Translations under genes and position numbers: made by a program
Shown: positions 1 through 64,000 of the stretch, in pieces
Numbering within the stretch: the first letter of the stretch is position 1
How the letters are laid out: every line of letters begins with the position of its first letter
Notes under the pieces: generated by a model
Told to the model about the DNA's origin: nothing
Databases searched by the model: none
What the model saw: only the letters and a program-made list of their open reading frames with translations
DNA from: an uncultured Acidobacteriota bacterium
Lineage (GTDB): Bacteria; Acidobacteriota; Vicinamibacteria; Vicinamibacterales; SCN-69-37
Direction of reading: 5' to 3'
Length of the DNA stretch: 64,000 nucleotides
NCBI GenBank assembly: GCA_963724955.1
Contig: CAVRWQ010000011.1
Span: forward strand, 314,357-378,356

Positions 1-437
1 CCGGTTGCGCCTGCCAGCCAGACGGCGCCCGGCTGGACGCGCCGGGCCGGCCCGCGCGGGCCGTCGACGGTGAACGCGGCCGGATGGCCATCGGCCATCT
101 CCCGCCTCAGTCGCGCGAGCGCGCGCGCGCCGCCGCGTGACGTCGAGCCGCGTGCCGCGCGGTACCCGAACCGGCGCATCAGGCGCGCCACCCACTCGCC
201 ATCGAAGTTCTCACTGGTCATCGCGACGATGCCCCGATCGCGAAAGTACAGCGTCGCGGCGAATATCCGTCCGTGCCAGAGCGCGAGGATCGGCTGCCGG
301 CCCTCGCGCACAACGCCGGCGAGATGTTGCGTCCCGTCCTCGCGCCAGTGATACGTCGCGCCCAGCGCCTCGACGAGCGGCATCCCGAGCGCCCCAATCG
401 CCGCGGCCTGAAACCGCTTGGTCCGCGAAAGGGTCAC
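1..437 (-). CDS. DUF374-type lysophospholipid acyltransferase family protein (3' end lies beyond window)
   Basis: Own translation of the minus strand from GTG at 437: VTLSRTKRFQAAAIGALGMPLVEALGATYHWREDGTQHLAGVVREGRQPILALWHGRIFAATLYFRDRGIVAMTSENFDGEWVARLMRRFGYRAARGSTSRGGARALARLRREMADGHPAAFTVDGPRGP... The WHGR / S.DGE / RGS.SRGG / DGPRGP pattern matches DUF374 as I recall it. The GTG overlaps the ETF-QO stop (ATGTGA). Absent from the ORF track because there is no stop inside the window. Confidence 0.6.
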   Translation of the reverse strand, partial: MTLSRTKRFQAAAIGALGMPLVEALGATYHWREDGTQHLAGVVREGRQPILALWHGRIFAATLYFRDRGIVAMTSENFDGEWVARLMRRFGYRAARGSTSRGGARALARLRREMADGHPAAFTVDGPRGPARRVQPGAVWLAGAT

Positions 438-2101
438 ATGCCTTCGTACTGGGGGCCTTCGCCGCCTTCAGGCGGCACCCAGTCGATGATCTGGTACGGG
501 TCCATGATGTCGCACGTCTTGCAGTGCACGCAGTTCGACGCGTTGATGTGCAGCTTCTTCCCGCCGCTGCCGTCGTCCACCATCTCATAAACCGCAGCCG
601 GGCAGAACCGCGTGCACGGGTTGCCGTACTCGACACGGCAGCGCGTCCGGCAGATGTCGGTGTCGTGGACGATCAGGTGCGACGGCTGATCCTCGGTGTG
701 TCGCGTGCCCGAGTAGTGCACGTTCGTCAGTCGATCGAACGTCAGGCGGCGATCGATCTTCACCGGCGTGGCCGGCGCGTCGATCGGCGGCGGTTGGCCG
801 TTGTAGTACTGCGCGAGCGTCCGCATCCGTTCGTGGCCGGCGTGCGACGGCATCGGATCGGAGACCCACCAGCCTCGAGTGGCGAGCGCCACCCCGGCGT
901 ACAGCAGGCCCGCGGGCAAGCCGTGCGAGAAGGCCTGGTGCACGTTGCGAACCGGATACAACTCGCGGCGCACAGCACTCCCGTCGATCAGTTGCTGGTA
1001 GCGCTCGAGCTTCGCCGCTGACACGTCGCCGGCACGCACGGCTTCGAACGCAGCTTCCGCCGCGAGCATGCCGGTGCGCATGGCCAGGTGAATGCCCTTG
1101 AGGCGCATCGAGTTCATGAACCCGCCCGCGTCGCCCGCGATGAGCGCGCCGCTCATGTGCACGCGCGGCGCCGTGTGCCATCCACCCTCCGGAAGCGCCT
1201 TCGCGCCGTATCGCACGAGCTTGCCGTCTTTCAGCAGGTCCGACACGAACGGATGCAGCTTGAAGCGCTGATACGTGAGGTGCGGATCGAACATCGGGTC
1301 GCGATAGTCGAGACCCGCGACGAACCCGACCGAGACCAGGCCATCCGGCATCGCGTAGATGAAGGCGCCGCCGAACTCCTCGAAGCGCAGCGGATAGCCC
1401 ATCGTGTGCATGACGGTACCGGCAGCCAGGCGATCCTTCGGCAGTTCCCACAGTTCTTTGATCCCAAGGGCGTACGTCTGCGGGAGGCGTCCTTCGTCCA
1501 GCTTCAGCGTCCGCACGAGCGTCTTCGTCAGATTGCCGCGCACGCCGTCGCAGAAGATCGTCACCTTCGCGCGCACGTCAACCCCCGGCTCGAAGTTCGA
1601 CTTGCGTTGCCCGTGCTTGTCGACGCCGCGATCGCCGGTCCTCACCCCGACGACGGTCGAGCCGTCGAAGAGCACTTCGGAGGCGCCAAACCCGCTGAAG
1701 ATGTCGACACCGGCGGCCTCAACCTTCCCGGCGAGCCACTTCACGAAGCGGTTGATGGAGATGATGTAGTTGCCGTGATTCTTGAGCGGCGGCGGCGTGA
1801 TCGGAAACCGGAACTTCGCGGTGCGGGTCAGGAAGTACACGAAATCGTGGTGAACCGTCGCAGCGAGCGGCGCGCCCTGCGTCTCGAAATCCGGAATCAG
1901 ATCGCGGAGCGCCGACGGGTCGAGGACGGCGCCGGACAGCTCGTGCGCGGCCGGGTCGCGCGCTTTCTCGAGCACGGCGATCGCCAGAGGGTCGCCGCCG
2001 CGCGCCTGCTGCAACTGGGCGAGTCGGAGGGCTGCGGACATGCCTGCCGGGCCTCCGCCTACGATCAGGATGTCCAGATCGAGCGTCTCGCGTTCAGTCA
2101 C
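434..2101 (-). CDS. electron-transfer flavoprotein:ubiquinone oxidoreductase (ETF-QO)
   Basis: Intact 555-aa ORF. N-terminal FAD fold ILIVGGGPAGMSAAL. C-terminal ferredoxin-like NCVHCKTCDIMDP and the WVPPEGGEGPQYEGM tail typical of ETF-QO. Confidence 0.9.
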   Translation of the reverse strand: MTERETLDLDILIVGGGPAGMSAALRLAQLQQARGGDPLAIAVLEKARDPAAHELSGAVLDPSALRDLIPDFETQGAPLAATVHHDFVYFLTRTAKFRFPITPPPLKNHGNYIISINRFVKWLAGKVEAAGVDIFSGFGASEVLFDGSTVVGVRTGDRGVDKHGQRKSNFEPGVDVRAKVTIFCDGVRGNLTKTLVRTLKLDEGRLPQTYALGIKELWELPKDRLAAGTVMHTMGYPLRFEEFGGAFIYAMPDGLVSVGFVAGLDYRDPMFDPHLTYQRFKLHPFVSDLLKDGKLVRYGAKALPEGGWHTAPRVHMSGALIAGDAGGFMNSMRLKGIHLAMRTGMLAAEAAFEAVRAGDVSAAKLERYQQLIDGSAVRRELYPVRNVHQAFSHGLPAGLLYAGVALATRGWWVSDPMPSHAGHERMRTLAQYYNGQPPPIDAPATPVKIDRRLTFDRLTNVHYSGTRHTEDQPSHLIVHDTDICRTRCRVEYGNPCTRFCPAAVYEMVDDGSGGKKLHINASNCVHCKTCDIMDPYQIIDWVPPEGGEGPQYEGM

Positions 2102-2125
2102 TACGGAACATCATATCTCCGACGA

Positions 2126-3079
2126 TCAGCCGCCGAAGTACCCGCGCTTTGCGCGAACGGTGTACCGCTTTTCGGTCAGCCGCGTCAGCTTGACCGCGAC
2201 GTCGTGCCAGCCGTACCGCGGCACGCCGGAGAGCGTGTAGCGCAGGACATAGCTCTGGCGAAAATCTTCGAACACGCGCTTGAATCCATCGACAGCGTCG
2301 TCGAACTCGCCGGGCAGATGCAGGTCCCCGCCAGTCTCTTCTGCGGCCGTGCGGAGCGCTTTCGCCGTCGGCGGCGGCGAGCCTGGATACCCCGCCAGCA
2401 CGATGTGCAGGACGGACTCGGCCCGGGTCGCGACGGCAGAGACCGTGGCCGCATCCACGACGCTCGCGGTATCCACGCCGTCCGTGAACGCCACGACCAG
2501 GCGTCGCCGCCCATGCGTGGGCGGCTGGACCAGCGCCAGCAGCAGCGCATCGTGGAGCGACGTCGTGTTTCCCGCCGAGATGCGGCTGTCTTTCAGCGCT
2601 TCGCCGCCCACGCGGTAGGGCACGACTTCGACGATGTCCGTCGCGAACGTGATGAGCCGGGCCCGATCCTTCTCCCGCAGCATCGCCACGATCTGTTGCG
2701 CCCTCGCTCTGAACCGATCGACGACCGAGATGGTGCTGGGACTGACGTCGAGGATCAGCGTGAGGTCGACCGGAACCTCTTCGATGACGATCGCGTCGAT
2801 CGATTGCCGGACACCGTTGTCGAGCAACTCGAAGTCGGCAGCCGTCAGCCCCTTGACCGGCGTCTTGCCGGCCCGTACCGCGACATCCACTTCGACGACG
2901 TCGGTCGCGGCGCGGAAGACCTGGGGCGCGGCGCCGGGCGTCGCGGCCCAGACAGCCAGTACAACAAGCAAAAGGACGGGTCTCGACTTGTGGAAAACTC
3001 CAGCAACTCCAAAGGGGACGGGTCTCCCCCTGTGGAAAAGTCCCGCAACTCTGACAACTGGGTTGCAGGACTTTTCCAC
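2126..3079 (-). CDS. secreted VWA-domain protein (Acidobacterial VWFA-related, TIGR03436-like), paralog 1
   Basis: ORF 2126..3175. Colinear with the 9034..9918 paralog (KGL.A.DFEL.DNGVRQ, MIDAS-like DVSPS, FTDG, YTVRAKRGY tail). Hydrophobic signal RPVLLLVVLAVWAATPGAAP. The start is uncertain: the only in-frame GTG is at 3079 (aagggga upstream), and a TTG near 2974 is also possible. Confidence 0.75.
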   Translation of the reverse strand: MEKSCNPVVRVAGLFHRGRPVPFGVAGVFHKSRPVLLLVVLAVWAATPGAAPQVFRAATDVVEVDVAVRAGKTPVKGLTAADFELLDNGVRQSIDAIVIEEVPVDLTLILDVSPSTISVVDRFRARAQQIVAMLREKDRARLITFATDIVEVVPYRVGGEALKDSRISAGNTTSLHDALLLALVQPPTHGRRRLVVAFTDGVDTASVVDAATVSAVATRAESVLHIVLAGYPGSPPPTAKALRTAAEETGGDLHLPGEFDDAVDGFKRVFEDFRQSYVLRYTLSGVPRYGWHDVAVKLTRLTEKRYTVRAKRGYFGG

Positions 3080-3097
3080 AGGCGGAGACCCGTCCCC
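2971..3097. repeat. three copies of a ~30-nt unit (two direct, one inverted) at the junction of the TPR-like and VWA genes
   Basis: aaaggacgggtctcgacttgtggaaaactcc (2971-3001), ggggacgggtctccccctgtggaaaagtcc (3014-3043) and the inverted ggacttttccacaggcggagacccgtcccc (3068-3097). The last two form a 30-bp stem with 1 mismatch and a 24-nt loop, ending 3 nt from the upstream stop codon. Confidence 0.8.
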
Positions 3098-3099
3098 TT

Positions 3100-4353
3100 T
3101 CACTTCAGTTCCGCCCTCAACTGCGCGATGAACAGCGGATAGAGCCGGTAATCGCCCAGCTTGTAGGTGCGCCACGGATCGAGCGGCGCCGTCTCGCCGT
3201 TGAAGAACAGTTGCACAATCGCGATCGCCTCGTCCTGGTGTCCTTCGGTGAACAGGCGCGCGGCGAGGAGCGACGTCGCCGATTGCGCGCGTGGGACGAT
3301 GTCGAGCGCGGCGCGATAGGCCGCGATCGCCTCAGCCACGCGGCCCTGCCGATCGCGAATCACGCCGGTGAGCAGATACGCCATATAGGCGAGATGCGGG
3401 TCGCGCGTCGACTCGATGACGTCCTGGAGATGGCCGAGCGCGTCCTCACGGTCCGCCAACCGGAACGCGATGTGGGCCAGCCGCAGATGCGCCTCGGCCG
3501 AGACCGAGTCGTGGCGCGTCAAGTCGGCGTACCGGGTTCGAAGCGCTCGCACTTCCGGAATGCCCGCGAGATAGAGCTCGGCGAGGCGCGCGTTCCACGA
3601 TCCCACACGCTGCGACCCATTCTCGCCCATGACCCGGCCCGCCTTCACGCGATCGATGTAGTCGGTGTCGATCTCGCCGGGCAGCAGGCTCGTGCGTTGA
3701 TTGGCATCGCGACCGTGCCCGCCGACGACCGAGTTCTGGTTGTCGAGCGAGATCGCGGCGGCCATGGCGAAGCGCGGTTCCGATGGAAAACGCGCCAGGG
3801 CATGGCCGATGTGCCCGAGCATCGGTTCCTGCTGGAACGGATCGCGGCTCAGTCGCGGCGCCTGCCCCTTCGGCGCCGTTCGCCCGGTCAGCAGGTGCCA
3901 ATCGTCCGCGCCGGAGATGGTGGCGACCGCCGCCAAATGCCACAGCCGCTCGGCGGCCTCGGGAACAGGATTGGCGCGGAGCTGAATGCATCCCCAGGTA
4001 ATCAGCCGGCTGCCCCAGGCCCAGTTCGTCGGACCGCCGCCCACCCACTTGCTGGCGACCTCGAGCGCAAACGTCGCGGCGACGAGGCGACGCCGGCCGA
4101 TGCCCGACCGATCGGCCTCGATCCACCGGCGCGCCTGATCCTCGAACGCACGCACCGACCGATCGACGCCGGGCCGCTGTGCAAACGTCGCCGCGGCACC
4201 GATGTTGCCGAGCGCATATTGGTCGAGGAGCGCCAGGACGTTGAGCGGTGGCTGAGATGGGGATGGGTTTGTCTGGGCCCTGCCGGTGGCCACAACGCAA
4301 GCCACCAGGGCACAGCCCAGGGCCAGACGTATGGTCGAGTGGGTCCGAAACAT
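3100..4353 (-). CDS. secreted TPR-like repeat protein, paralog 1 (function unknown)
   Basis: Intact 417-aa ORF. Signal peptide MFRTHSTIRLALGCALVACVVATGRAQ. The C-terminal ~130 aa are helical-repeat-like (AIAAYRAALDIVPRAQSATSLLAARLF) and colinear with ORF 9915..11111. Confidence 0.7.
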   Translation of the reverse strand: MFRTHSTIRLALGCALVACVVATGRAQTNPSPSQPPLNVLALLDQYALGNIGAAATFAQRPGVDRSVRAFEDQARRWIEADRSGIGRRRLVAATFALEVASKWVGGGPTNWAWGSRLITWGCIQLRANPVPEAAERLWHLAAVATISGADDWHLLTGRTAPKGQAPRLSRDPFQQEPMLGHIGHALARFPSEPRFAMAAAISLDNQNSVVGGHGRDANQRTSLLPGEIDTDYIDRVKAGRVMGENGSQRVGSWNARLAELYLAGIPEVRALRTRYADLTRHDSVSAEAHLRLAHIAFRLADREDALGHLQDVIESTRDPHLAYMAYLLTGVIRDRQGRVAEAIAAYRAALDIVPRAQSATSLLAARLFTEGHQDEAIAIVQLFFNGETAPLDPWRTYKLGDYRLYPLFIAQLRAELK

Positions 4354-4482
4354 CGGCCGTCCTGCTAGTAAAGGCGTGATTATGCCACCTCAGCTAGAAC
4401 GCTCTGTAAGAAATCCGTGGGTTTTCGCTAGGATTGAAAGACTCCGCGAAGCCCGCGACGATCAGGAGCGGCGCTGAGCGAC

Positions 4483-4579
4483 GCGAGCGGGGGGGCCCCG
4501 CGTATGAAAAGTTGACCGCCGAAGGGCGAGCGTAGCGAGCCCGTGAGGCGCTGCGAGCGGGGGTGGGGCCCCCGCGAGC
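4483..4579. repeat. GC-rich hairpin repeats in the divergent intergenic region upstream of lhr
   Basis: gcgagcgggggggccccgcg (4483-4502) and gcgagcgggggtggggcccccgcgagc (4553-4579). The second recurs inverted at 11196-11221, differing by one C. Confidence 0.6.
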
Positions 4580-4588
4580 CACTAAAAA

Positions 4589-7500
4589 ATGTCACTCGAC
4601 TGGGCCCATCCTATCGTCCGGCAGTGGTTTCTGGGGCGGTTCGGCTCTCCGACCGAGCCGCAGCTCGCGGGATGGCCGCACATCCTCGCGAACCATGACA
4701 CGCTGATTTCTGCGCCCACCGGGTCGGGCAAGACGCTGGCGGCATTTCTTGCGTGCCTGGACCGTCTGGTCCGGCAGGCGGTGGACGGGACGCTCGAAGA
4801 CCGCACTGACGTCCTCTACATCTCGCCGCTCAAAGCGCTCGGCAACGACATCCAGAAGAACCTCGACGGCCCGCTCGCGGACATCGTCGCGCTGGCGCGT
4901 GAGCACGGGCACACCCTGCCCGAGATCCGCACGGCCGTCCGGACAGGCGACACGTTGATGCCGGCGCGGCAGGCCATGCTGAAGCGGCCGCCGCACATTC
5001 TCGTCACGACTCCGGAATCGCTGTTCATCCTGCTCACGGCCGAACGGAGCCGCGAGATGCTCCGCAGCGTTCGGACCGTCATCGTCGACGAAATCCACGC
5101 GGTCGCCGACGACAAGCGCGGATCGCATCTCGCGCTGTCGCTCGAGCGGCTCGATGCGCTGACAGGCCGGCGCGTGCCACGCATCGGCCTGTCGGCGACG
5201 CAAAAGCCGATCGAGCTCGTCGGGCAGTTTCTGTCGGGGTCCGGCCGGCCGGCGCCGACGATCGTGCAGATCAGCACCCGGCGCGCGTTCGACCTGGCGG
5301 TCGAGGTGCCCAGGAGCGAGCTGGGTCCGATCGCCACGCACGAGCTGTGGGGTGAGGTGTACGATCGGCTCGTCGAGCTCAGCAGCCAGCATCGATCGAC
5401 CCTGGTGTTCGTCAACACGCGACGGTTGACCGAGCGCGTCGCGCACAACCTGGCCGAGCGCCTGGGACACGAGCTGGTCGCCGCGCATCATGGCAGCCTC
5501 TCGCGCCGGACGCGGCTGCTCGCAGAACAGCGGCTCAAGAACGGCGAGCTGCGGATTCTCGTCGCGACGGCCTCGCTCGAGCTGGGCATCGACATCGGCC
5601 ATGTCGATCTGGTCTGCCAGATCGGGTCACCTCGTTCCATTGCGGGCGCCGTGCAGCGCATCGGTCGCGCCGGGCACTGGCGAGGCGCGGTGCCCAAAGG
5701 CCGCCTGTTCGCGACGTCGCGGGACGAGCTGGTCGAGTGTGCTGCGCTCGTGCTCGCGATGCGCAACGGCGAGCTGGATCGGCTCATCGTGCCCGACGCG
5801 CCGCTCGATATCCTCGCCCAGCAGATCGTCGCGACCTGCGCCGCGGACGAGTGGGGCGAGGACGACCTCTACACGCTCGTCCGGCGCGCCTGGCCGTACC
5901 GCGATCTCTCGCGCGCCGATTTCGACGCGATCGTCGAGATGCTCTCGGAGGGCATTGCCGCGCGCCGCGGCCGGTACGGCGCGTACCTGCATCGCGATCG
6001 GGTGAACGGCCGGCTGCGCAGCCGGCGCGGTGGCCGCCTTGCGGCGATCACCGGCGGCGGCGCCATCCCGGACACGGCCCTCTATTCCGTCGTCGTCGAG
6101 CCGGAAGGCACGGTGGTCGGCACGGTTGACGAAGACTTCGCGGTCGAGAGCACGGCGGGCGACATCATGCTGCTCGGCAACGCGTCGTGGCGGATTCGCC
6201 GCGTCGGGTCGGGACGTGTGATCGTCGAGGACGCGCACGGCGCGGCGCCGACGATCCCGTTCTGGCGCGGTGAGGCGCCGGCCCGGACCGTCGAGCTGTC
6301 GGAACACGTCGCCGACGTGCGATCGCGAGTCAGCGCGCTTGCGCCTGAGGCCAGACCTGGCGACGCGAACGAGAAGAAGCCGACGGCCGAAGCGGCCGTC
6401 GCGTGGCTCGAGACGCACTGCGGTCTCGATCGCGCCGGCGCGGAACAGGCCGTCGAGTACATCGTGGCGGGGCGCACCGTCCTCGGCGACGTCCCAACGA
6501 GAACGACCGTCATCGCCGAGCGCTTCTTCGACGAAGCCGGCGGGATGCAGCTCGTGATTCACGCGCCCTTCGGCGGCCGAATCAACAAGGCGTGGGGACT
6601 GGCGCTGCGCAAACGATTCTGCCGCTCGTTCAACTTCGAGCTGCAGGCGGCGGCGACCGACGATGGCATCAACATCTCACTCGCAGAACAGCACAGCTTT
6701 CCGCTCGCAGACGTGTTTCGATTCCTGAGTCCCGTCACGGTGCAGGAGGTGCTGGAGCAAGCCGTGCTGCCCTCGCCGATCTTCGGCACGCGCTGGCGTT
6801 GGGACGCCAGCCGGTCGCTCGCCCTTCAGCGATTCAGGAACGGCCGGCGCGTGCCCATTCAGATTCAGCGGATGCAGTCGGACGACCTGCTCGCGTCGGT
6901 TTTCCCCGACGCGGCCGCGTGCCAGGAGAACATCGAAGGCGACATCAAGATTCCCGACCATCCACTGATTCGGGAAGTGATGAAGGACGTCCTCACCGAG
7001 GCGATGGACATCGACGGGTTGAAGGACGTGCTCGCGCAGCTTGGCGACGGGCGCGTTCGCGCCGTGGCCGTCGATACGCCGGTGCCGTCGCAGTTCTCGC
7101 ACGAGATCCTGAACGCGAACCCGTTCGCGTATCTGGACGACGCGCCGCTCGAGGAACGGCGCGCGCGGGCGGTCGAGATGCGGCGCGTGCTGCCCGCGTC
7201 GGTGCTCGAGGAAGTCGGGCGGCTGGATCCGGAAGCGATCGCCGAGGTCACGGCCGAGGCGTGGCCCGACGTGCGCGACGCCGACGAGCTGCAGGACGCG
7301 CTGCAGACGTTGATCGCGCTGCCCGAGCCGATGGGCGCTGCCTGGACCGCATGGTTCGACGAGCTGGTCGCCGAGCGCCGCGCGGCACGCGCGATCGCCG
7401 GCGGGCGCACGTTCTGGGTGTCGGCCGAGCGTGGCAAGACGTTCCGGCCGCTCTTCCCCGCGGCGACGTTCGAGACGGTGCTGCCGGACGTGCAACCCGC

Positions 7501-8933
7501 GACGCCCGAGCGTCACGACGCGATGTCAGCGCTCGTGCACGGCTGGATGTCGCACTCCGGGCCGATCACCGCGCAGGAACTCGGAGAGCGTCTTGGGCTC
7601 GACACGTCAGACATCGACGAGGCGTTGCTTCGGCTCGAAGCGAGCGGCACCGTCCTTCGCGGGCGTTTCAGGACCACGCCCGAAGCAGCGAAAGCCGCGC
7701 CGGTCGGCGCGGCTCGCGACGCGCGGGCACGCGTCCGCAAGCGAGCGAGCCGGGAGTCCGAGGGGCGAAGCCCCTCGGAGAGAAGTTGAATGGTGCGAGC
7801 GGCGCCTGCTCGCCAGAATTCACCGGCTCACGCTGGGCCGGCTGCGGCGCGAGATCGAACCCGTCACCGCCTCGACGTTCATGCGGTGGCTGTTCTCGTG
7901 GCAGCACCTCGCACCCGGCACGCAGACATTCGCGGATCGCGGCACGCTCGCCGTGCTCGAGCAGTTGCAGGGCTTCGAGGCGCCGGCCAACGCCTGGGAG
8001 CCGTGGCTGCTCGCGCGGCGCATCGCGCAGTACGACCCGAAGGTGCTCGACCAGCTCTGTCTCGCCGGCGCGGTGGGGTGGGGCCGGCTGTCGCCGCATC
8101 CGGCGGTCCTCGGCGCGGCGGCTGCGACGTCGCCCACGTTGACCGACGGCTCGCGGCCTCGCCGCGTCGTGCCGACCAGCGTCGCGCCGATCACGTTCTT
8201 CATCCGCGATGCGTCTGACTGGATGATGGCGCGGCACGACATCGACGAGACCGCCGGCATTCCCGGACTCAGCCGCCACGGACGGGACGTCCTCTCGTTC
8301 CTGCGGCGCGCAGGCGCGTCGTTCTTCCCCGACATCGTGCGCGGCATCCGCCTCCTCAAGTCCGAGGTCGAGACCGGCCTCTGGGAACTCGTCGCGGCCG
8401 GTCTCGTCACGGCCGACGGCTTCGACAACCTGCGGGCGCTCATCGATCCGCGCCGCCGCAGCGGACACGGCTCGGGCAAGACGTCGCGCCCGCGTCACAG
8501 CACCGGACGCTGGGCGCTGCTCTACGCGAGCGAGCCGCCCGATCGCGCCGTCGCGATCGAAGCGACGTGCTGGATGCTGCTCCGGCGTTACGGCGTCGTG
8601 TTCCGCGAGCTGCTCGCGCGCGAGACGATTCTTCCAGCCTGGCGCGAAGTGCTGATCGCCTTCCGCCGGCTCGAAGATCGCGGCGAGATTCGTGGCGGAC
8701 GCTTCGTGAACGGATTCATCGGCGAGCAGTTCGCGCTGCCGGTCGCCGTCGAATCGCTTCGAGCCCTGCGCCATGTCGCGCCCTCGGGCGAGACGATCAC
8801 GGTCTCTGCTTCAGATCCGTTGAATCTCGTCGGCGTGATCGTGCCGGGCGAGCGCGTGCCGGCGATCTCCGGCCGGCTCGTGACGTTCCGAGACGGCGCG
8901 CCAGTCGAGACAAAGACTCACCATGAAGAATGA
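4589..8933 (+). CDS. lhr: Lhr-type DEAD/DEAH-box ATP-dependent helicase, reading frame interrupted near 7673-7781
   Basis: ORF 4589..7789 carries the helicase motifs (APTGSGKT, DEIH, SAT, HHGSLS, QRIGRAGH) and the Lhr-specific middle region. ORF 7431..8933 continues in the +1 frame from EVEWCERRLLARIHRLTLGRLRREIEPV to the C-terminus. Joined length is ~1450 aa, typical for Lhr. Confidence 0.85.
7757..7779. other. perfect 9-bp stem / 5-nt loop hairpin inside the lhr frame-break segment
   Basis: tccgagggg-cgaag-cccctcgga, read directly. It lies at the 3' end of the 109-nt non-homologous segment. Confidence 0.7.
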
Positions 8934-16662: not shown

Positions 16663-16687
16663 TCAGTCCTCCTGCGTGAATTCAGTT

Positions 16688-16714
16688 GGCGGCCCACAAC
16701 CCGGGCCGCCCTAC
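16688..16714 (-). repeat. REP-like element 1 (GTAG head + 8-bp GC stem), directly on the fabG stop
   Basis: Minus strand GTAG-GGCGGCCC-GGGTTGT-GGGCCGCC. The TAG within GTAG is the fabG stop codon. Confidence 0.7.
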
Positions 16715-57173: not shown

Positions 57174-58034
57174 CTACAGATACTTCTGAATGATGGGCTT
57201 GAGCTTCTCTTTCGTCGCCGCCGGAACGGCATCGGGACGCGTGATGATGGCCGACTGCAGCGCGCGAGCGCATTCACACGAGCGCTCGATCGGCAGCGCT
57301 TCGACGGCATTGGCAATGACCTGCTGCGCCGTTCGCGCGTTCTGGGTCAGGTTCGCGACGATCATGTCGACCGTGACCGAGTCGTGGCCGGGGTGCCAGC
57401 AGTCGTAGTCGGTGACCAGCGCAATCGTCACGTAGCAGATCTCGGCTTCGCGCGCGAGCTTGGCCTCCTGCAGGTTGGTCATGCCGATGACGTCGTACCC
57501 GGCGGCCCGATACGCATTCGACTCGGCCACCGTCGAGAACTGCGGGCCCTCCATGCAGACGTAGGTGCCGCCCTGGTGCACCGTCGCGCCGGCGCGCGTC
57601 GCGGCCGCATACGCCACCTCGCTCAGCGGCCCGCAGAACGGGTGCGCAAAGCCGACGTGCGCGACGAGGCCGTCGCCGAAGAACGTGCTGACTCGTCCGC
57701 GCGTGCGGTCGAAGAACTGGCCGGGGATGACGAGGTCGAGCGGTTTGTAATCTTCACGAAGACTGCCCACAGCGCTCGCCGAGAGGAGCCACTCGACGCC
57801 GAGGAGCTTGAAGCCGTAGATGTTCGCGCGAAAGTTCAGCTCGGAGGGCAACAGCCGGTGGCCGTGCCCGTGGCGCGCGAGGAACGCGACGCGGCGGCCG
57901 CGCAGCGTCGCCAGCACGTACGGGCCGGAGGGATCCCCAAAGGGCGTCGAAATGACGTGTTCCGTGCGATCTGAAAGCTCCGCCATGTCGTACAGGCCGG
58001 AACCGCCGATGATGCCGATGGATGCAGAAGACAT
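57174..58034 (-). CDS. mtnP: S-methyl-5'-thioadenosine phosphorylase
   Basis: Intact 286 aa. [12 protein letters not shown]...[30 protein letters not shown]...[19 protein letters not shown]...[20 protein letters not shown]. Confidence 0.9.
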
Positions 58035-58099
58035 AGGAATCGGTGCTGGGTGCGGCGTGCTGGGTGCAGAGTGCGGTGGGTGCGGGGGTGCGTGCGACG

Positions 58100-58936
58100 C
58101 TAAATCCGCACCGGATCCACGACTTTGCGGCCGTTACGCTCGCGGATGATGCCGGCCGCTATGGCCGGATCGTGCTCGAAGAAGATAACGTACTCGCCGT
58201 CGATCGCCTCGCGAAGAAAGCGCTTCTTGTACGTCAGCGTGTCCATCGGGTACAGGTCGTAGCCCATGATCCACGGCTCATCGACGTGCGCGGTCGTCGG
58301 CATCAGGTCAGCGACGAAGACCGCTGTCTGGCCTCCGGAGACGATCTTGATCAGGTGGTGATGCATCGTGTGTCCGCCGGTGCGCCACGTGCTGATGCCC
58401 GGCAGCACGTCGCCGTCGTGCTCGATGAACCGGATCACGCCGGCCTCCTCGAGCGGCACGAAGTTCTCGGCGAGATAGCTGGCGCGATTGCGCTCGTGGG
58501 GGTGCGTGGCGTCCTCCCACTCGGCGCGGCGCACGAAGTGCGTCGCATTCGGGAACCGCGGCACAGGCCGCCCGTCGCGCATCACGGTGCAGCCGCCGAC
58601 ATGATCGAAATGCAGGTGCGACGTGATCACGGTGTCGATGTCGGCCGCGGTGAGCCCCGCGGCGGCCAGCGCATGGTCCAGGTGCTCGCGCCGATCGATC
58701 GCGTAGATGTCCGTCTCCTTCGCGCTCATCTTGTCGCCGATGCCGGCGTCGATGAGCACCGTGCGATCGCCCGTGCGCACGAGCAGGGGCCGCAGGCCGA
58801 GCGTGATGCGGTTGCGCTCGTCGGCGGGCGCCCGCCGTTCCCACAATGGCTTGGGCACGACGCCGAACATCGCGCCGCCATCGAGACGGAACGTGCCGTC
58901 GGACAACGGCGTGAGCTCGAAGTCACCCAGCTGCAT
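58100..58936 (-). CDS. MBL-fold metallo-hydrolase
   Basis: [29 protein letters not shown]...[13 protein letters not shown]...GGHTMHH. ATG at 58936 lies within ORF 58100..59332. Confidence 0.8.
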
Positions 58937-59342
58937 CGGGAGCCAGCTCCTTGAGCTCGATGAGCAGCCCGTGCGTGCTGGACGGGTGCAGAAACGCGAT
59001 GCGGGATCCGTGCGCGCCGGGCCGGGGCCGCTCGTCGATGAGCCGCACGTGCTTCGCCACGAGCGCCGCCAGCGCCGCGTCGATGTCCTCGACGACGAGA
59101 CAGACGTGATGCAGCCCGGCGCCGCGCTGCGCGAGAAACTTCGCGACCGGCGAATCCGGCTCGAGCGCCTCGACCAGCTCGATCGTCGTCCCGCCGGTCT
59201 CGACGAAGCGCACGCGATGCCGGCCAACGTCCTCCGGCTCGCCGGTCGCGAGATCGAACAGATCCCGGAAGAGCGCGACCAGCGGCTGCGGATCCGCGAC
59301 GGCCACGCCGACGTGGTCGATTCGCCCGGCACCTCTCGTCAT
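58923..59342 (-). CDS. mce: methylmalonyl-CoA epimerase (VOC/glyoxalase fold)
   Basis: MTRGAGRIDHVGVAVADPQPLVALFRDLF...TTIELVEALEPDSPVAKFLAQRGAGLHHVCLVVEDIDAALA...IAFLHPSSTHGLLIELKE. In this sequence it reads in-frame with the meaB 3' part. Confidence 0.75.
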   Translation of the reverse strand: MTRGAGRIDHVGVAVADPQPLVALFRDLFDLATGEPEDVGRHRVRFVETGGTTIELVEALEPDSPVAKFLAQRGAGLHHVCLVVEDIDAALAALVAKHVRLIDERPRPGAHGSRIAFLHPSSTHGLLIELKELAPDAAG

Positions 59343-60285
59343 GATCGACCGCGCAGCGCCGTACGGATCGATTTCCCGGTTGGCGATGCGATCGAGCAGG
59401 CGCTCGAACTCGCCGGGCGCCAGGATGTCCTCCTCCACGTGACGGACGTACCGCCTGCCGAGGATCTCGCGCAGCCGCCACTCGGCTCGCGCGCGCCGGC
59501 GGCTCCCGAGGGCCTGTTCGGTCGCGGCGCGGAAGCGGCCGATCATCGCGACCAGCTCCGGCAATCCCGCGCCGGTCGTCGCTGTCGTGCGGAGCACGGG
59601 CGGCCGCCAGCGTCCCGTCGGGTCACTGCTCGAGCGTGAGCATCGCCTCGATGGACGCGGCCGTCCGGTCCGCGCCCTCCCGGTCCGCTTTGTTCACGAC
59701 GAAAATGTCGGCGATCTCCATGATCCCGGCCTTGAGCGCCTGCACTTCGTCGCCGGCGCCGGGCACCATCGTGACGATCGAGACATCGGCCGTGCGGACG
59801 ATGTCCACTTCGTCCTGACCGACGCCGACGGTCTCGATGATCACGATGTCGAAGCCGGCGGCGTCGAGCACCATCGCGGCGTCCGCGGAGGTCCGGGCGA
59901 GGCCGCCGAGATGGCCGCGGGTCGCCATGCTCCGGATGAAGACGCCGGCGTCCTCGGCATGCGATTGCATGCGCACGCGATCGCCGAGGATCGCGCCGCC
60001 GCTGAACGGACTGGTGGGATCGACAGCCAGCACGCCGACCGAGGCGCCGGTCTTCCGAAACTCCGCGATCAACCGGTCCACGAGCGTGCTCTTGCCGGCG
60101 CCCGGCGGCCCCGTCACGCCGACCAGGTAGGCCCGGCCGGTGCGCGGATAGAGGCGGCCGACCAGCTCGGCGCCTTCCGCCGATTCGTTTTCGATGAACG
60201 AGATCGCCCGCGCGATGGCGCGTGGATCGCGCGCGAGCACGCGCTCTGCCAGCGAAGCGAGGGCCTGGGGCACCGGCGGGCTCAC
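59343..60285 (-). CDS. meaB: methylmalonyl-CoA mutase-associated GTPase MeaB (one frame change near 59625)
   Basis: VGVTGPPGAGKSTLVDRL, VLAVDPTSPFSGGAILGDRVRM, IIETVGVGQDE, VVNKADR. After the frame change: WRPPVLRTTATTGAGLPELVAMI... Confidence 0.8.
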
Positions 60286-61427
60286 CGTCCGAGCAGGTGC
60301 CGCGCGATCACCAGCCGCTGGATCTCGCTCGTGCCCTCGCCGATCGTGCAGAGCTTCACGTCGCGGAAGTACTTCTCGGCCGGGTAGTCCTTCACGAAGC
60401 CGTACCCGCCGTGAATCTGGACGCTCTCCTCGGCGGCGCGCACGGCGATTTCGCTCGAGTAGAGCTTCGCAATAGACGACTCAGCCGACGTCCGCTCGAT
60501 GCGCTGATCGCGCATCCAGGCCGCGCGGTACGTCAGGAGGCGCGCGGCGTCGATGCGCGTGTACATGTCCGCGAGCTTCCAGCGAATGGCCTGGAAGTTC
60601 GCAATCGGCTGACCGAACTGGCGGCGTTGGAGCGCATGCCGGCGCGCGGCTTCGTAGGCCCCCTGCGCGAGACCGACGGCGAGCGCCGCGATGCCGATGC
60701 GCCCGGCGTCCAGCACCTGCATCGCCCCGACGAAGCCTTCACCTTCGGCGCCGACCATCGCGTCGGCGTCCACGCGGCAATCCTGGAGCAGCACCTCGCT
60801 CGTGTCGCTGGCGCGCATGCCGAGCTTGTCTTCCTTCTTGCCCGCCGAGAGACCGGGCGTGCCGCGCGTGACCACGAACGCCGAAATCCCCCGGCGCGAT
60901 TGCGTCCGATCGGTCACGGCCATCACGACCAGCGTCGCGGCACTGGTGCCGTGCGTGATGAACTGCTTGGAGCCGTTCAGCACCCACCCGCGCCCGTCGC
61001 GTACGGCGGTCGTGCGCATGGCGCCGGCGTCGCTTCCGGCATTCGCTTCGGTGAGCGCCCAGCCGCCGAGCGCGGCGCCGCTCGAGAGCGGCGGGAGGAA
61101 CGTCCGCTTCTGCGCTTCGCTGCCGAACATGGCGAGATGCGCCACGCACAGCCCGTTGTGCGCGGCCACCGACAGCGCGATCGACGGATCGACGCGGGCG
61201 AGCTCTTCGATGCAGATGCAGTACTCGAGCGCGGACAGACCCGCGCCGCCGTACTCCTCAGAGAGCTGGATACCGGTCAACCCGAGCGAGGCCAGCCTGG
61301 ACACCAGGCTCGACGGGAACTTCTGCGCCTCGTCCCACTCCATGACATGGGGGCCAATCTCGGTCTCGGCAAACTCCCGAACGCTGCGGCGCAGCAGCTC
61401 GTGTTCGCCCGTCGGGCGCAGATCCAT
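60282..61427 (-). CDS. acyl-CoA dehydrogenase
   Basis: Intact 381 aa. GGWALTEANAGSDAGAMRTTA...GSKQFITHG...YPAEKYFRDVKLCTIGEGTSEIQRLVIARHLL. Confidence 0.9.
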   Translation of the reverse strand: MDLRPTGEHELLRRSVREFAETEIGPHVMEWDEAQKFPSSLVSRLASLGLTGIQLSEEYGGAGLSALEYCICIEELARVDPSIALSVAAHNGLCVAHLAMFGSEAQKRTFLPPLSSGAALGGWALTEANAGSDAGAMRTTAVRDGRGWVLNGSKQFITHGTSAATLVVMAVTDRTQSRRGISAFVVTRGTPGLSAGKKEDKLGMRASDTSEVLLQDCRVDADAMVGAEGEGFVGAMQVLDAGRIGIAALAVGLAQGAYEAARRHALQRRQFGQPIANFQAIRWKLADMYTRIDAARLLTYRAAWMRDQRIERTSAESSIAKLYSSEIAVRAAEESVQIHGGYGFVKDYPAEKYFRDVKLCTIGEGTSEIQRLVIARHLLGR

Positions 61428-61481
61428 CAGGGGAAAATATCACGCGGCGAGTTGGCGGGCCCAAGCCCGGCCCGCCCTGCG

Positions 61482-61961
61482 CTAAAACGCGAGGTTCACG
61501 CCGGCATAGAAGCGCTGGGGCGTCTTGTAGAGCGGACTGCCCCGAAGCGAATACACGCGGTAGTCGACCCTCAGCCGGAGCGGACCTGCCAGGGTGATCT
61601 TGACCCCGCCGCCGATATTCGTGCCGAAGCTCGTCGCGGTGTCGCCGAGGATATGCTCCCGGTAATAGCCGCCGCCCACGGTCCCGTACAACTGCACGCC
61701 GGACGTCGGTGTCAGCAGCAGTGCGTTGAACATCCCGGTCGTGAGCCCCGGTGCGGCCTTGAGCTCGTCCTCGCGCACCGTGCTGTAGTCGAACTCGAAG
61801 CCGACGATCAGCAGGTTGATGCCGAGCGCGAACCCCCTCGCCGGCCGGTTCTCGGGCGTCGGAGAAAACCCGACGAAGAACGTCAGGTCGGCCGAGGCGC
61901 GCGAGGGCACGCCGACCAGCGCCGTCAGCGCGAGCAGCGAGACGATGAGCAGGCGTTTCAT
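61482..61961 (-). CDS. small outer-membrane beta-barrel protein (OmpA-like 8-strand type)
   Basis: Signal MKRLLIVSLLALTALVGVPSRASA, alternating beta pattern, and the terminal ...RFYAGVNLAF aromatic residue. Confidence 0.7.
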   Translation of the reverse strand: MKRLLIVSLLALTALVGVPSRASADLTFFVGFSPTPENRPARGFALGINLLIVGFEFDYSTVREDELKAAPGLTTGMFNALLLTPTSGVQLYGTVGGGYYREHILGDTATSFGTNIGGGVKITLAGPLRLRVDYRVYSLRGSPLYKTPQRFYAGVNLAF

Positions 61962-62002
61962 GTTCCTCCTATCGGTCCGTCTGCCCGCGGACTGCACGTT
62001 TT

Positions 62003-62029
62003 GGCGGCCCGAAACCCGGGCCGCCCTAC
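62003..62029 (-). repeat. REP-like element 3 (GTAG head + 8-bp GC stem)
   Basis: Minus strand GTAG-GGCGGCCC-GGGTTTC-GGGCCGCC-AA. 27 of 29 nt are identical to the copy at 16688-16714. Confidence 0.7.
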
Positions 62030-62080
62030 GAGTAGGGGCGCGGCGCGCGGCTGGTGTATGCGCGGAGCGCCGCCGGCGCC

Positions 62081-62551
62081 CTACCTCAACTTCCCGAGCC
62101 CCATTCGCTCGACGCGGATGATGGACGCCTTGAGACGGTCGTAGAGGGCCTGCGCTTCGGTGGGGAGGCCTTCGCCCAGGAGCCGCACGGGATCGTAGTC
62201 GGCGCCCGGCACGGCGAGGTCGAACAGGAAGAGATAGATCGTGGAGTCGCGCGCGACTTCGGCGGACTTGAAGATGCGCCAGCCGGCCGCCTGTTGCTTC
62301 CGGACCGGATCAGGCGTGGTCTCGAGCACGTGGGCGACGCGCGAGACGACGGCCTCGAAGTCGGCCGTGCGGTCCGGCCGCACGTAGAAGAAGAGCAGGC
62401 CCGCGCCACCGGGGAACGTGTAGGCCTGCCCGGCCGCAGGCGCCGCGGCCGCGCCCGAGGGCGCCCCCTGGGCGGGCCTCATCAATTCGGCCGCCGGACG
62501 GACGGGCAGGAGCAGAGAACATGCGAGCGACGCGGAGAGAACACGCTGCAT
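62081..62551 (-). CDS. small secreted protein, paralog P1 of a tandem triplet (unknown function)
   Basis: Intact 156 aa with a signal-like N-terminus. Shares ..FF.V.P....DFEA...., W+IFK, Y..L.D, YDPV+LL.EGLP....LYD+LK with P2 and P3. Confidence 0.6.
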   Translation of the reverse strand: MQRVLSASLACSLLLPVRPAAELMRPAQGAPSGAAAAPAAGQAYTFPGGAGLLFFYVRPDRTADFEAVVSRVAHVLETTPDPVRKQQAAGWRIFKSAEVARDSTIYLFLFDLAVPGADYDPVRLLGEGLPTEAQALYDRLKASIIRVERMGLGKLR

Positions 62552-62574
62552 GGAGCATCTCCAGAAACGCGAAC

Positions 62575-62604
62575 GGGACGCCGGCGCATCTGCGCCGGCG
62601 TCCC
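62575..62604 (-). terminator. strong GC hairpin between paralogs P2 and P1 (intercistronic terminator/attenuator candidate)
   Basis: gggacgccggcgca-tc-tgcgccggcgtccc, a perfect 14-nt inverted repeat. On the minus strand it is followed by guucgcguuucugg and then GGAG..AUG of P1. Confidence 0.4.
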
Positions 62605-62641
62605 GGGAACGAGGTCTGCTGACCCGCGGGCGAACGCGCGC

Positions 62642-63151
62642 CTAGTGCGCGGGCGCCGGGTCGCCCATGATCTTGATCACGGACTTGCTGATCCCTTTGA
62701 TGTTCGGCCCGACCTTCTTGTAGATCTCCTGCACCTGGTCCGGGGGCAGTCCCTCCGCCAGGATCTTGAACAGGTCGTAGCTCACGCCCTTGGCGACCGG
62801 ATCGAGAATCCAGATGTAGGTGAGGATGCCGTTGGTCGCCGCTTCGAGTTTGACGAAGAGCTTCCAGCTGGCGGCCTGTGCCTTGCGCTCGGGCTTGTCA
62901 CTCTTGGACAGGACTTCCTTGACCTTGCCCATGAAGGCCTCGAAGTCCGCGGCGGCAGGCTCAGCGACCTGGAAGAACATCGTCACGGAGTCAACGTTGA
63001 ACGTCAGACCGTCATCGCCGGCCGGAGCCTGAGCGGCTTGCCCCGATGGCTTTGCTGCGCCTACGGTTGTGGAGACAGAAAATGCGCACGCGAGCGCTGC
63101 CATCATCAACGCACGCCGGCGCCACGCCGGCTTCGATCCCGACCACGTCAT
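62642..63151 (-). CDS. small secreted protein, paralog P2
   Basis: Intact 169 aa with signal ALMMAALACAFSVSTTVGAA. LTFNVDSVTMFFQVAEPAAADFEAFMGKVKEVL...AASWKLFVK...YIWILDPVAKGVSYDLFKILAEGLPPDQVQEIYKKV. Confidence 0.6.
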   Translation of the reverse strand: MTWSGSKPAWRRRALMMAALACAFSVSTTVGAAKPSGQAAQAPAGDDGLTFNVDSVTMFFQVAEPAAADFEAFMGKVKEVLSKSDKPERKAQAASWKLFVKLEAATNGILTYIWILDPVAKGVSYDLFKILAEGLPPDQVQEIYKKVGPNIKGISKSVIKIMGDPAPAH

Positions 63152-63218
63152 GCCTTACCTCCCGGCCCGGGGGGCCACGGTGCCGTCACTAAACTTAACC
63201 GAGTAAAGGCCGATCCCC

Positions 63219-63779
63219 TCAGAGCCCGACCTTCGCGAGCGGCCAGAACTGAATGTTCTGCACCGAATCCTTCAGCTTGTTGTAGATCGCGTCCGCTTCT
63301 TCGCGTGTGACTACGGTCGCGCCCATAAGCGTATCGTAGACGATCTTCACCGGGTTATAGCTGTGCGTCTTGGACGGCGTGTCGATCTGGATGATGTAGA
63401 GCACCACCGGCGGCGGCTGTCCTCCCTGCGCGCCAAGATCGACCTTGTACAGCTTCTGCAAACTGTCGGCAAACGCCTTGACGTCCGGTTTGTCCGCGAT
63501 CTTGGCCAGCCCGGCCCGAATCGCGTTCCAGGCGGATTCGAATTCCGCCGTCTTGTCGGGCTTGACCTGATTCATGAGCATTATGGGCGTGTCGAGGTTG
63601 AACTTGAGCTGATCGACTTCCTGCTGCGGTGCGGCAGGCGGGGGCTGTTGCTGCGCGGGGGGCGGCGTCTGCGCCTGGGCGGCGACGCCCTGGCTCGACG
63701 CGACGGCGACGAGCGCCGCGAATCCCACCCGAATCAACGCGCGCCGACGCGACGCTGCCAGTACACTTGCCCGCTTCAT
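63219..63779 (-). CDS. small secreted protein, paralog P3
   Basis: Intact 186 aa with signal ALIRVGFAALVAVASSQGVAAQA and a Q/P-rich linker. LKFNLDTPIMLMNQVKPDKTAEFESAWNAIRAGL...LYKVDL...YIIQIDTPSKTHSYNPVKIVYDTL...ADAIYNKLKDSV. Confidence 0.6.
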   Translation of the reverse strand: MKRASVLAASRRRALIRVGFAALVAVASSQGVAAQAQTPPPAQQQPPPAAPQQEVDQLKFNLDTPIMLMNQVKPDKTAEFESAWNAIRAGLAKIADKPDVKAFADSLQKLYKVDLGAQGGQPPPVVLYIIQIDTPSKTHSYNPVKIVYDTLMGATVVTREEADAIYNKLKDSVQNIQFWPLAKVGL

Positions 63780-63812: not shown

Positions 63813-63832
63813 GGCCGCCCGAAGTGGCCTAC
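63813..63832 (-). repeat. possible degenerate REP-like hairpin downstream of the hemW-like gene
   Basis: Minus strand GTAGGCCAC-TTCGG-GCGGCC (stem with a G-U pair). It is adjacent to a second small hairpin gcccc-gcaaa-ggggc (63793-63807). Confidence 0.3.
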
Positions 63833-63861
63833 TTTAGCGTACTACTGTCAACGTCCCGCGG

Positions 63862-64000
63862 TCATACGAATGTCGTTAGGATTTCATTAGCCACAAGCAT
63901 TCCGGGCCGCGTCAGGCCGAACCCCTCGTCGGTGCGCCACAGCAACCCATCGGCCACGTAGGGAGTGAGTGCCGTTCCGTAGCGAACCCAGGGATCGACA
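63862..64000 (-). CDS. C-terminal fragment of a HemN/HemW-like radical-SAM protein (5' part beyond window)
   Basis: Own translation: ..VDPWVRYGTALTPYVADGLLWRTDEGFGLTRPGMLVANEILTTFV*. This resembles the HemW/HemN C-terminal domain. Short, so tentative. Confidence 0.4.
   Translation of the reverse strand, partial: VDPWVRYGTALTPYVADGLLWRTDEGFGLTRPGMLVANEILTTFV

Follow-up and report, generated by a model that had tools for sequence, protein, structure and literature searches.

Within a 64,000-nucleotide stretch of DNA from an uncultured soil acidobacterium (Vicinamibacteria, Vicinamibacterales; NCBI GenBank assembly GCA_963724955.1, contig CAVRWQ010000011.1, positions 314,357 to 378,356 of the forward strand; the whole stretch is hereafter the window), the map of open reading frames (ORFs) shows four co-directional minus-strand genes, in the order P3, P2, P1 and a small gene for an outer-membrane protein (OMP), downstream of a HemW-like radical-SAM gene (Table 1). 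P1–P3 are paralogues by pairwise BLASTP (E=3e-19 for P2/P1, 5e-9 for P3/P2 and 7e-8 for P3/P1, at 25–34% identity). Their sizes, positions and strand are as given in the first-pass annotation (made from the letters alone), and the core motifs that it listed for all three are present, apart from W(K/R)(L/I)F, which P3 lacks. A Shine–Dalgarno (SD) sequence precedes the ATG of each of the four genes; for the OMP, the SD-preceded ATG at 61961 yields 159 residues, the modal length of its homologues, and was taken as the start in place of that of a 171-residue GTG ORF. In three other loci (L001, L003 and L085), the family gene comes after a HemN_C gene whose C terminus matches that of the upstream gene here.

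Table 1. Features of the locus and related elements, in window coordinates (REP, repetitive extragenic palindrome; RR, twin arginine; ACAD, acyl-CoA dehydrogenase; SDR, short-chain dehydrogenase/reductase; ACP, acyl carrier protein)
Feature	Position	Strand	Remarks
3′ end of HemN_C radical-SAM (HemW-like) gene	63862..64000	-	Upstream gene; extends beyond the window; translation ends in GMLVANEILTTFV, then stop
Putative -10-like promoter motif GTACGCTAAAGTA	63830..63842	-	20 nt past the hemW stop, about 50 nt before the P3 ATG
P3, 186 aa	63219..63779	-	Predicted export signal, Pro/Gln-rich linker, divergent family domain without R89/Q92/W96
P2, 169 aa	62642..63151	-	Best-conserved ('main-type') copy; RRR-containing predicted export signal; predicted ferredoxin-like core at about 50–160
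P2–P1 hairpin	62560..62605	-	Perfect 14–15 bp stem (62574–62605), U-rich tail, then P1 SD and ATG
P1, 156 aa	62081..62551	-	Third paralogue; all family consensus residues kept; predicted Sec-type signal without RR
REP-like palindrome between P1 and OMP	62001..62030	.	Absent from L085
Small OMP, 159 aa	61482..61961	-	Predicted signal peptide, C-terminal Phe; OMP_b-brl/Opa-like
REP-like palindrome right after the OMP stop	61452..61481	.	24 nt before the ACAD ATG; absent from L085
REP-like palindrome, third copy	16686–16712	.	Between an SDR/FabG-like gene (product ending in VNGGMYL, then stop) and an ACP-like gene

A reading of P1–P3 as spurious open frames of a high-GC genome would be in keeping with the GC content of the region (62–72%) and with the many overlapping ORFs on both strands, but it is already refuted by comparative data. 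The 93%-identical relative L085 carries the same four genes, and in this comparison P3, P2, P1 and the OMP have ratios of nonsynonymous to synonymous substitution rates (dN/dS) of 0.29, 0.106, 0.19 and 0.17, respectively; the adjacent ACAD gene has 0.07. Because dN/dS for P1–P3 is thus 0.11–0.29, these are real genes under purifying selection rather than high-GC artefacts; hundreds of homologues with conserved motifs, confidently predicted folds and the SD sequence before each ATG also speak against spurious frames.

Seven positions are strongly conserved across 151 domains from all architectures of the family: Y125 (100%), F70 (95%), Y112 (94%), E71 (93%), Q92 (88%), W96 (87%) and R89 (80%). 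P2 and P1 retain all seven, and P3 has lost R89, Q92 and W96. No His is conserved among the 151 domains, each mature P1–P3 protein having a single, non-conserved His, and the family has no conserved Cys. P1–P3 and the OMP all start with a positively charged n-region that is followed by a hydrophobic h-region, which bears out the signal-like N termini reported earlier for the three paralogues; these and other sequence features indicate that P1–P3 carry an export signal and a flexible Pro/Ala/Gln-rich linker. An RR motif occurs in P2 (WRRRALM) and P3 (SRRRALI) and is absent from P1; the corresponding site in P3 of L085 reads SCRCALI, and 18 of 58 family members have RR followed by hydrophobic residues. 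The 'LAC' that P2 and P1 contain is a poor match to a lipobox and its Cys varies among family members, so the idea that the proteins are lipoproteins was rejected.

At the sequence level, the earlier statement that the core could not be assigned to a family holds. Searches with P1–P3 gave no significant match in Pfam, NCBIfam, PHROGs or PADLOC; in hmmscan against Pfam-A at E<=1, none of ABM (PF03992), Dabb (PF07876), NIPSNAP (PF07978), Cld or DyP was found; and profiles of 3 and of 22 family sequences had no match among PDB sequences. A weak match of P1–P3 to PsbQ was discarded, since it spans only the signal and linker region. As a query for homologues, P2 returned 79 matches and a two-domain member 725, all of them 'hypothetical' and without Pfam domains. 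Among representatives of 50%-identity clusters, a profile of the core alone recovered 1005 at E<=1e-3 and 644 at E<=1e-10. Among species-representative genomes, a scan found 126 relatives, nearly all labelled as Acidobacteriota, Vicinamibacteria or Vicinamibacterales, together with a few oddly labelled bins; such bins aside, every source or locus that carries an organism name is from Vicinamibacteria/Acidobacteriota. Family members of intermediate length contain only low-complexity linkers or are chimeric ORF calls. Neither the family nor its caspase architectures were found described in searches of the literature. The family is thus an undescribed one from Vicinamibacteria, of which P1–P3 are three anciently diverged paralogues.

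A structural model of P2 (AlphaFold2, 61-sequence alignment) has a predicted local distance difference test score (pLDDT) above 90 at residues ~50–160, with a disordered signal and linker. Its elements (strand 56–63, helix 64–83, helix 87–94, strand 96–106, strand 109–116, helix 127–134, helix 137–150 and strand 151–158) give the core a predicted β-α-α-β-β-α-α-β topology (that is, ferredoxin-like). In Foldseek against the PDB, this model finds only generic matches, namely ABM monooxygenases, 'dimeric ferredoxin-like proteins', NIPSNAP and S6, at E values of 7e-4 or weaker and 6–15% identity (the probability is 0.9–1.0 for the ABM and dimeric ferredoxin-like matches). With the ABM-like proteins, the family would share the ferredoxin-like β-α-β-β-α-β domain, yet it has no detectable sequence relation to them (Pfam, NCBIfam and PDB profiles), has an extra short helix after each long helix, has a distinct motif set (F-E / P-x-R-x-x-Q-A-x-x-W / Y / D-P / Y-D), and carries an export signal and linker that would make it extracytoplasmic, whereas ABM proteins are typically cytoplasmic. 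The likeness to NIPSNAP and Dabb (stress-responsive A/B-barrel) proteins extends to fold class and small size, but the matches are marginal (E 6e-3 to 2e-2, TM-score 0.4–0.5) and without counterpart in Pfam.

The same fold appears in pairs in a natural two-domain member, P0080, the model of which (36 homologues) reaches a pLDDT of 86 and a predicted TM-score of 0.82; as the latter is obtained despite a disordered inter-domain linker, the two domains are confidently predicted to pack together. In Foldseek, the P0080 model matches the tandem α/β-barrel proteins 3mcs and 2pgc (E 1.5e-7 to 3e-7, TM-score about 0.6), with which it shares two domains packed sheet-to-sheet, and more weakly sulfur oxygenase reductase (SOR), HemQ/chlorite dismutase (Cld) and DyP; identity between this pseudo-dimer and the dimeric α/β-barrel proteins that it resembles is 6–14%. 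HemQ, Cld and DyP (EfeB) resemble P0080 in their two-domain α/β-barrel arrangement, but at TM-scores of 0.3–0.45 and root-mean-square deviations of 8–13 Å, and the family has no conserved His ligand and domains of half their size. DyP/EfeB is a periplasmic substrate of the twin-arginine translocation (Tat) pathway, and the RRR-containing signal of P2 may be a further point of likeness. On the basis of these models, the family belongs to the dimeric α/β-barrel fold superfamily and to none of its described sequence families. Sheet-to-sheet pairing is seen in the model of the two-domain P0080, P1–P3 being single-domain proteins. In the fused two-domain proteins, the first and second halves (D1 and D2) are sister clades, which implies that the fusion arose by internal duplication, and such an origin argues for a homodimer as the basic unit. 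For the same reason, we rejected a Rosetta-stone reading in which the fusions join a P2-like and a P1-like gene.

Copy number varies across the family. Of 87 loci, 62 are single-copy, whereas two copies occur in 18 and three in 7, and four domains, as two single genes and a double one in that order, are present in some lineages; the triplet of the window is thus not the norm. P3, P2 and P1 each fall in an orthologous clade of their own; the three clades, in conserved gene order, recur in L085, L003/L004 and L005 and in part in L006, L086 and L002. With dN/dS as given above, this agrees with the earlier view that the duplication is old and maintained, and the distribution of the clades indicates that the triplication is confined to one sub-lineage.

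Clues to what the domain does come from its fusions. Two-domain members make up 25 of the 150 best representatives, 7 of these 25 are long fusions, and all seven caspase/TIR fusions carry exactly two family domains. Five consist of a signal peptide, a caspase-like Peptidase_C14 domain and two family domains, and one of them, P0118, also ends in TonB_C. The other two have an N-terminal TIR domain, basic residues, one hydrophobic transmembrane helix, an Ala/Pro-rich linker and two family domains, a layout that would place the family domains outside the cytoplasm; a TIR fusion gene adjoins MlaF/MlaD-type genes. In a further member, the family domain is fused to Ltp lipoprotein repeats. On a 313-kb contig (JGI 3300085309; L089, positions 1–7956), four secreted Peptidase_C14 paralogues lie in tandem, with C-terminal modules that are PDZ_2, an unidentified module, OmpH (Skp-like) and two family domains plus TonB_C, respectively, a set that resembles periplasmic proteases with swappable recognition domains. 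The family domain thus occupies the slot that PDZ_2, OmpH/Skp and TonB_C modules occupy behind a secreted Peptidase_C14 in one tandem array, and is itself combined with TonB_C, although folds and sequences are unrelated; the likeness is positional, and functional by analogy only. A small N-terminal module, 'DTL(I/V)L(R/K)DG..(I/V).G.LI', was found fused to the domain in P0107 and also in gene g207 of L087 (5711–6334, beside the OMP gene), the remainder of which is weakly similar to PA-IL lectin (21.2 bits, under the cutoff).

The neighbouring OMP starts with a predicted signal peptide, ends in Phe and has putative strands with alternating hydrophobic residues, as in the eight-stranded OMP_b-brl (PF13505)/Opa-like proteins; its mature length of ~135 residues is very short, and it scores 27.3 bits against PF13505, 1.4 bits short of the cutoff of 28.7. 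No PDB sequence matched it. Its 1329 homologues of 158–159 residues occur class-wide, many of those at 60–96% identity have PF13505 in precomputed annotation, and the JGI name for them is 'opacity protein-like surface antigen'. In 75 of 84 fetched loci, an OMP homologue lies 10–200 bp past the last family gene, in 75 of 75 on the opposite strand (that is, convergently). The co-directional array plus OMP described earlier is consequently no general unit: it belongs to the lineage of the window, where (as in L085) the OMP gene has been inverted together with the ~35 nt that precede it (61482–61997 in the window). Independently, in L087/L088, it is the two-domain family gene that has been inverted, so that it now follows the OMP gene co-directionally at a distance of 36 nt; single-gene inversions thus recur at this locus. 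REP-like elements were considered as the cause of the OMP inversion and rejected, given that L085 has the inversion without the elements.

Family and OMP genes sit within a longer block, in the order dnaK-dnaJ-merR/hspR-IstB-like AAA-hemW, family and OMP genes, ACAD-meaB-glyoxalase/epimerase-metallo-β-lactamase (MBL)-MTA phosphorylase (mtaP)-pfkB. This block (57174–61427 in the window, together with the upstream loci) is kept throughout the class; gene calling gives a single product for meaB and the glyoxalase domain in L003, and for the glyoxalase and MBL domains in L087. The adjacency of OMP and family is suggestive of a functional link.

Transcription of the family genes may start from a promoter of their own. 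The 13-nt motif GTACGnTA(A/G)AGTA lies between the hemW stop and the first family gene in 44 of 85 loci (background 0.012), is invariant in a ten-locus alignment at 25–55 nt upstream of SD and ATG, and is present in a single copy in the window; we infer from this that it is a dedicated -10-like promoter element of the family. Between P2 and P1, the perfect inverted repeat reported earlier was confirmed as a 14–15 bp stem (arms 62574–62588 and 62591–62605) that folds more stably than shuffled sequences (z=-3.75, 0/200). The hairpin is kept at the same junction in the window, L085, L003, L005 and L006, with compensatory double changes in 4 of 13 pairs, and in these five loci it is followed by T-rich tails (TTCGCGTTTCT, ATTGTCTTTTCT, TTTGCTTTTC, TCTTTTCTC and CTTTTGTCAT) and then by the P1 SD and ATG, so that it has the form of an intrinsic (that is, Rho-independent) terminator, with a GC-rich stem-loop plus a U-rich tract on the sense strand. 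An Escherichia coli-type promoter and terminator scan of the locus returned 0 sites, a result that is uninformative in a GC-rich genome, and the hairpin is not called by such a scanner because its tail has fewer than 5 T in 8. Hairpins of 10–20 bp also follow the main copy in most multi-copy loci, and a stem of at least 11 bp follows the family gene in 32 of 65 single-copy loci, compared with 1.6% of control windows. These patterns support the internal attenuator that had been proposed earlier, with the P2–P1 hairpin as a putative terminator or attenuator that would lower expression of P1 relative to P3 and P2. In L030, L040–L043, L048, L056, L065 and others, a conserved 11–15 bp palindrome, GAAGCGGTGCGCTGG...CAGCGCACCGCTTC, was seen 30–50 nt after the family stop. 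It falls inside the convergent OMP gene, near the 3′ end of the coding sequence, and codes there for ..GALYSPAHRF..; the co-directional OMP of the window lacks this palindrome, which is possibly a terminator embedded in coding sequence.

That P1–P3 are real, exported proteins with an α/β-barrel fold that form a new family is, in our judgement, very probable. As to function, the explanation that we favour, with slightly better than even confidence, is that the family constitutes a paired extracytoplasmic barrel domain for binding or sensing that is tied to the OMP. Two β-α-β-β-α-β domains of ~110 residues would pack into a dimeric α/β-barrel as the working unit; we propose a dimer because the two-domain fusions that arose by internal duplication are predicted to pack in this way and because the caspase/TIR fusions examined are all two-copy. 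In the periplasm, this dimer would bind or sense a ligand or partner in the envelope, as the architectures and the conserved polar and aromatic constellation (F70, E71, R89, Q92, W96, Y112 and Y125) suggest, and it is gene order that would tie its role to the adjacent, equally conserved 159-residue OMP barrel. Transcription would proceed from the conserved promoter-like motif after hemW, the terminator-like hairpin after P2 would leave P3 and P2 more abundant than P1, and P3, with three consensus residues lost, may be a degenerate partner. Context thus points to the domain as a modular extracytoplasmic recognition unit that functions as a dimer or pseudo-dimer; whether P1–P3 are indeed binding or sensing modules rather than enzymes, and work with the OMP, we put at roughly even. 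The first-pass suggestion of a surface or periplasmic binding set therefore survives in its periplasmic half, which fits the domain architectures seen elsewhere, whereas the placement of P1–P3 at the surface is unsupported.

Several observations weigh against this explanation. The closest structural matches are mostly enzymes. The adjacency to the OMP lies inside a long syntenic housekeeping block, in which slow rearrangement could explain it, convergent genes are not co-transcribed, and a separate subclade of the family occupies unrelated loci without the OMP, in contexts that are variable and uninformative. In addition, the export signals of P1–P3 may be either cleaved signal peptides or uncleaved membrane anchors, and the fusion history gives no evidence for heterodimers among P1, P2 and P3.

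The first of these observations raises the prospect, fairly unlikely in our view, that P1–P3 are periplasmic enzymes or cofactor handlers of the ABM, IsdG, HemQ or DyP type, in which the barrel cleft would bind a tetrapyrrole or aromatic small molecule and oxidize or transform it, with Glu, Tyr and Arg as catalytic residues or axial ligands. The predominance of enzymes among the structural neighbours (ABM monooxygenases, anthrone oxidase-like proteins, PenE, SOR, HemQ/Cld and DyP) would be explained, as would an invariant Tyr and near-invariant Glu, Arg and Gln, but identity to any enzyme is 6–15% at TM-scores of only 0.4–0.6, the ABM, Dabb, NIPSNAP, Cld and DyP models of Pfam remain unmatched at E<=1, and conserved His and Cys are lacking. 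P2-clade signals have a long, RR-containing n-region that is reminiscent of Tat substrates such as DyP/EfeB; set against this, RR is limited to the 18 of 58 members noted above and is lost in P3 of L085. Similarly, although the family gene always follows the heme-chaperone-like hemW, the two are neighbours within a wider block of conserved synteny, and the family genes have a promoter-like motif to themselves. The occurrence of the domain at the C-terminal end of proteases and on the outer side of a transmembrane TIR protein, in a PDZ/OmpH/TonB_C slot that is typical of recognition domains, also argues for recognition over catalysis. A second possibility, which we regard as unlikely, is that P1–P3 are periplasmic chaperones or assembly or tethering factors for the 159-residue OMP or for OMPs generally, binding unfolded barrels or the C-terminal signature as Skp or PDZ domains do. 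The OMP adjoins the family at the 75 of 84 loci and is equally conserved across the class, two independent inversions have produced co-directional OMP–family neighbours, and in L089 the domain, combined with TonB_C, replaces the OmpH (Skp) and PDZ_2 modules of paralogous secreted caspases. The predicted fold, however, is unlike that of any known OMP chaperone (Skp, a helical 'jellyfish', SurA or BamE), there is a family subclade at loci without the OMP, and in most genomes the genes are convergent and hence separately transcribed; moreover, a chaperone or tether would be a special case of the binding module that we favour rather than an independent model.

The fusion partners also invite readings in which the domain takes part in defence or surveillance. 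That P1–P3 are components of biological conflict (that is, immunity proteins or sensors in an array under diversifying selection) would accord with the TIR and caspase-like fusions, which match the PADLOC TIR-like and caspase models, and with a tandem array of divergent secreted paralogues. We consider this very improbable: it is the TIR and caspase parts of the fusions alone that match PADLOC, P1–P3 and P0080 having no match; the genes belong to the core set of the class and keep a fixed place among housekeeping genes; selection is purifying, not diversifying; and no toxin, effector or mobile-element genes lie nearby. A more far-reaching version of the recognition idea, distinctly speculative in our estimation, is that the domain is the periplasmic signal-recognition module of an unrecognized acidobacterial envelope-surveillance network. 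In such a network, free P1–P3 dimers, working with the small OMP, would take up a ligand in the envelope (for example, a hydrophobic small molecule or segments of OMPs that lie exposed). The fused pseudo-dimer would link the same recognition step to an output, either caspase-like proteolysis in the periplasm or a TIR effector on the cytoplasmic side of the inner membrane; if true, this would be a bacterial extracellular sensor that is wired directly to TIR and caspase outputs.

Vicinamibacteria are an abundant class of soil acidobacteria that are known largely from metagenome-assembled genomes, and because the family is conserved class-wide at one fixed locus, it probably has a core envelope function. 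The novelty lies in an exported family that has a distinct set of motifs and is present throughout the class at one locus beside a small OMP, and in what appears to be its use as a paired recognition module on secreted caspase-like proteases and on a transmembrane TIR protein. Once the family is defined, roughly 1000 clusters (50% identity) of 'hypothetical proteins' acquire a name and a fold, the dimeric α/β-barrel superfamily gains an exported branch, and the unusual architectures (secreted caspases with swappable modules, and TIR with an external sensor-like domain) offer entry points into acidobacterial envelope biology. The locus is also a clean comparative example of a conserved intercistronic terminator-like element and of repeated single-gene inversions. 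These results are useful for annotation and overturn nothing in current understanding, and the mechanism put forward is one that we infer.

Two smaller features of the locus deserve mention. The hairpin between P1 and the OMP had been labelled REP-like, aptly so, as the element TTGGCGGSCC-N5-7-GGSCCGCCCT has 3 copies in the 64 kb of the window (16686–16712, 61452–61478 and 62001–62027; 0 expected by chance), all just 3′ of minus-strand genes, and the two copies that flank the OMP gene are 83% identical to each other. Because the orthologous sites in L085 are without them, these elements are recent insertions; a scan of the locus against Rfam gave nothing near threshold. Immediately before the start codon of the ACAD gene (ATG at 61427), the window, L085, L086 and L003 share a conserved sequence, 'GTGATATTTTCCCCTG(G)ATG' (61428–61447, minus strand), with a -10-like box at only 7–10 nt from that codon, which suggests that the ACAD mRNA is leaderless or has a very short leader and is transcribed from its own promoter.

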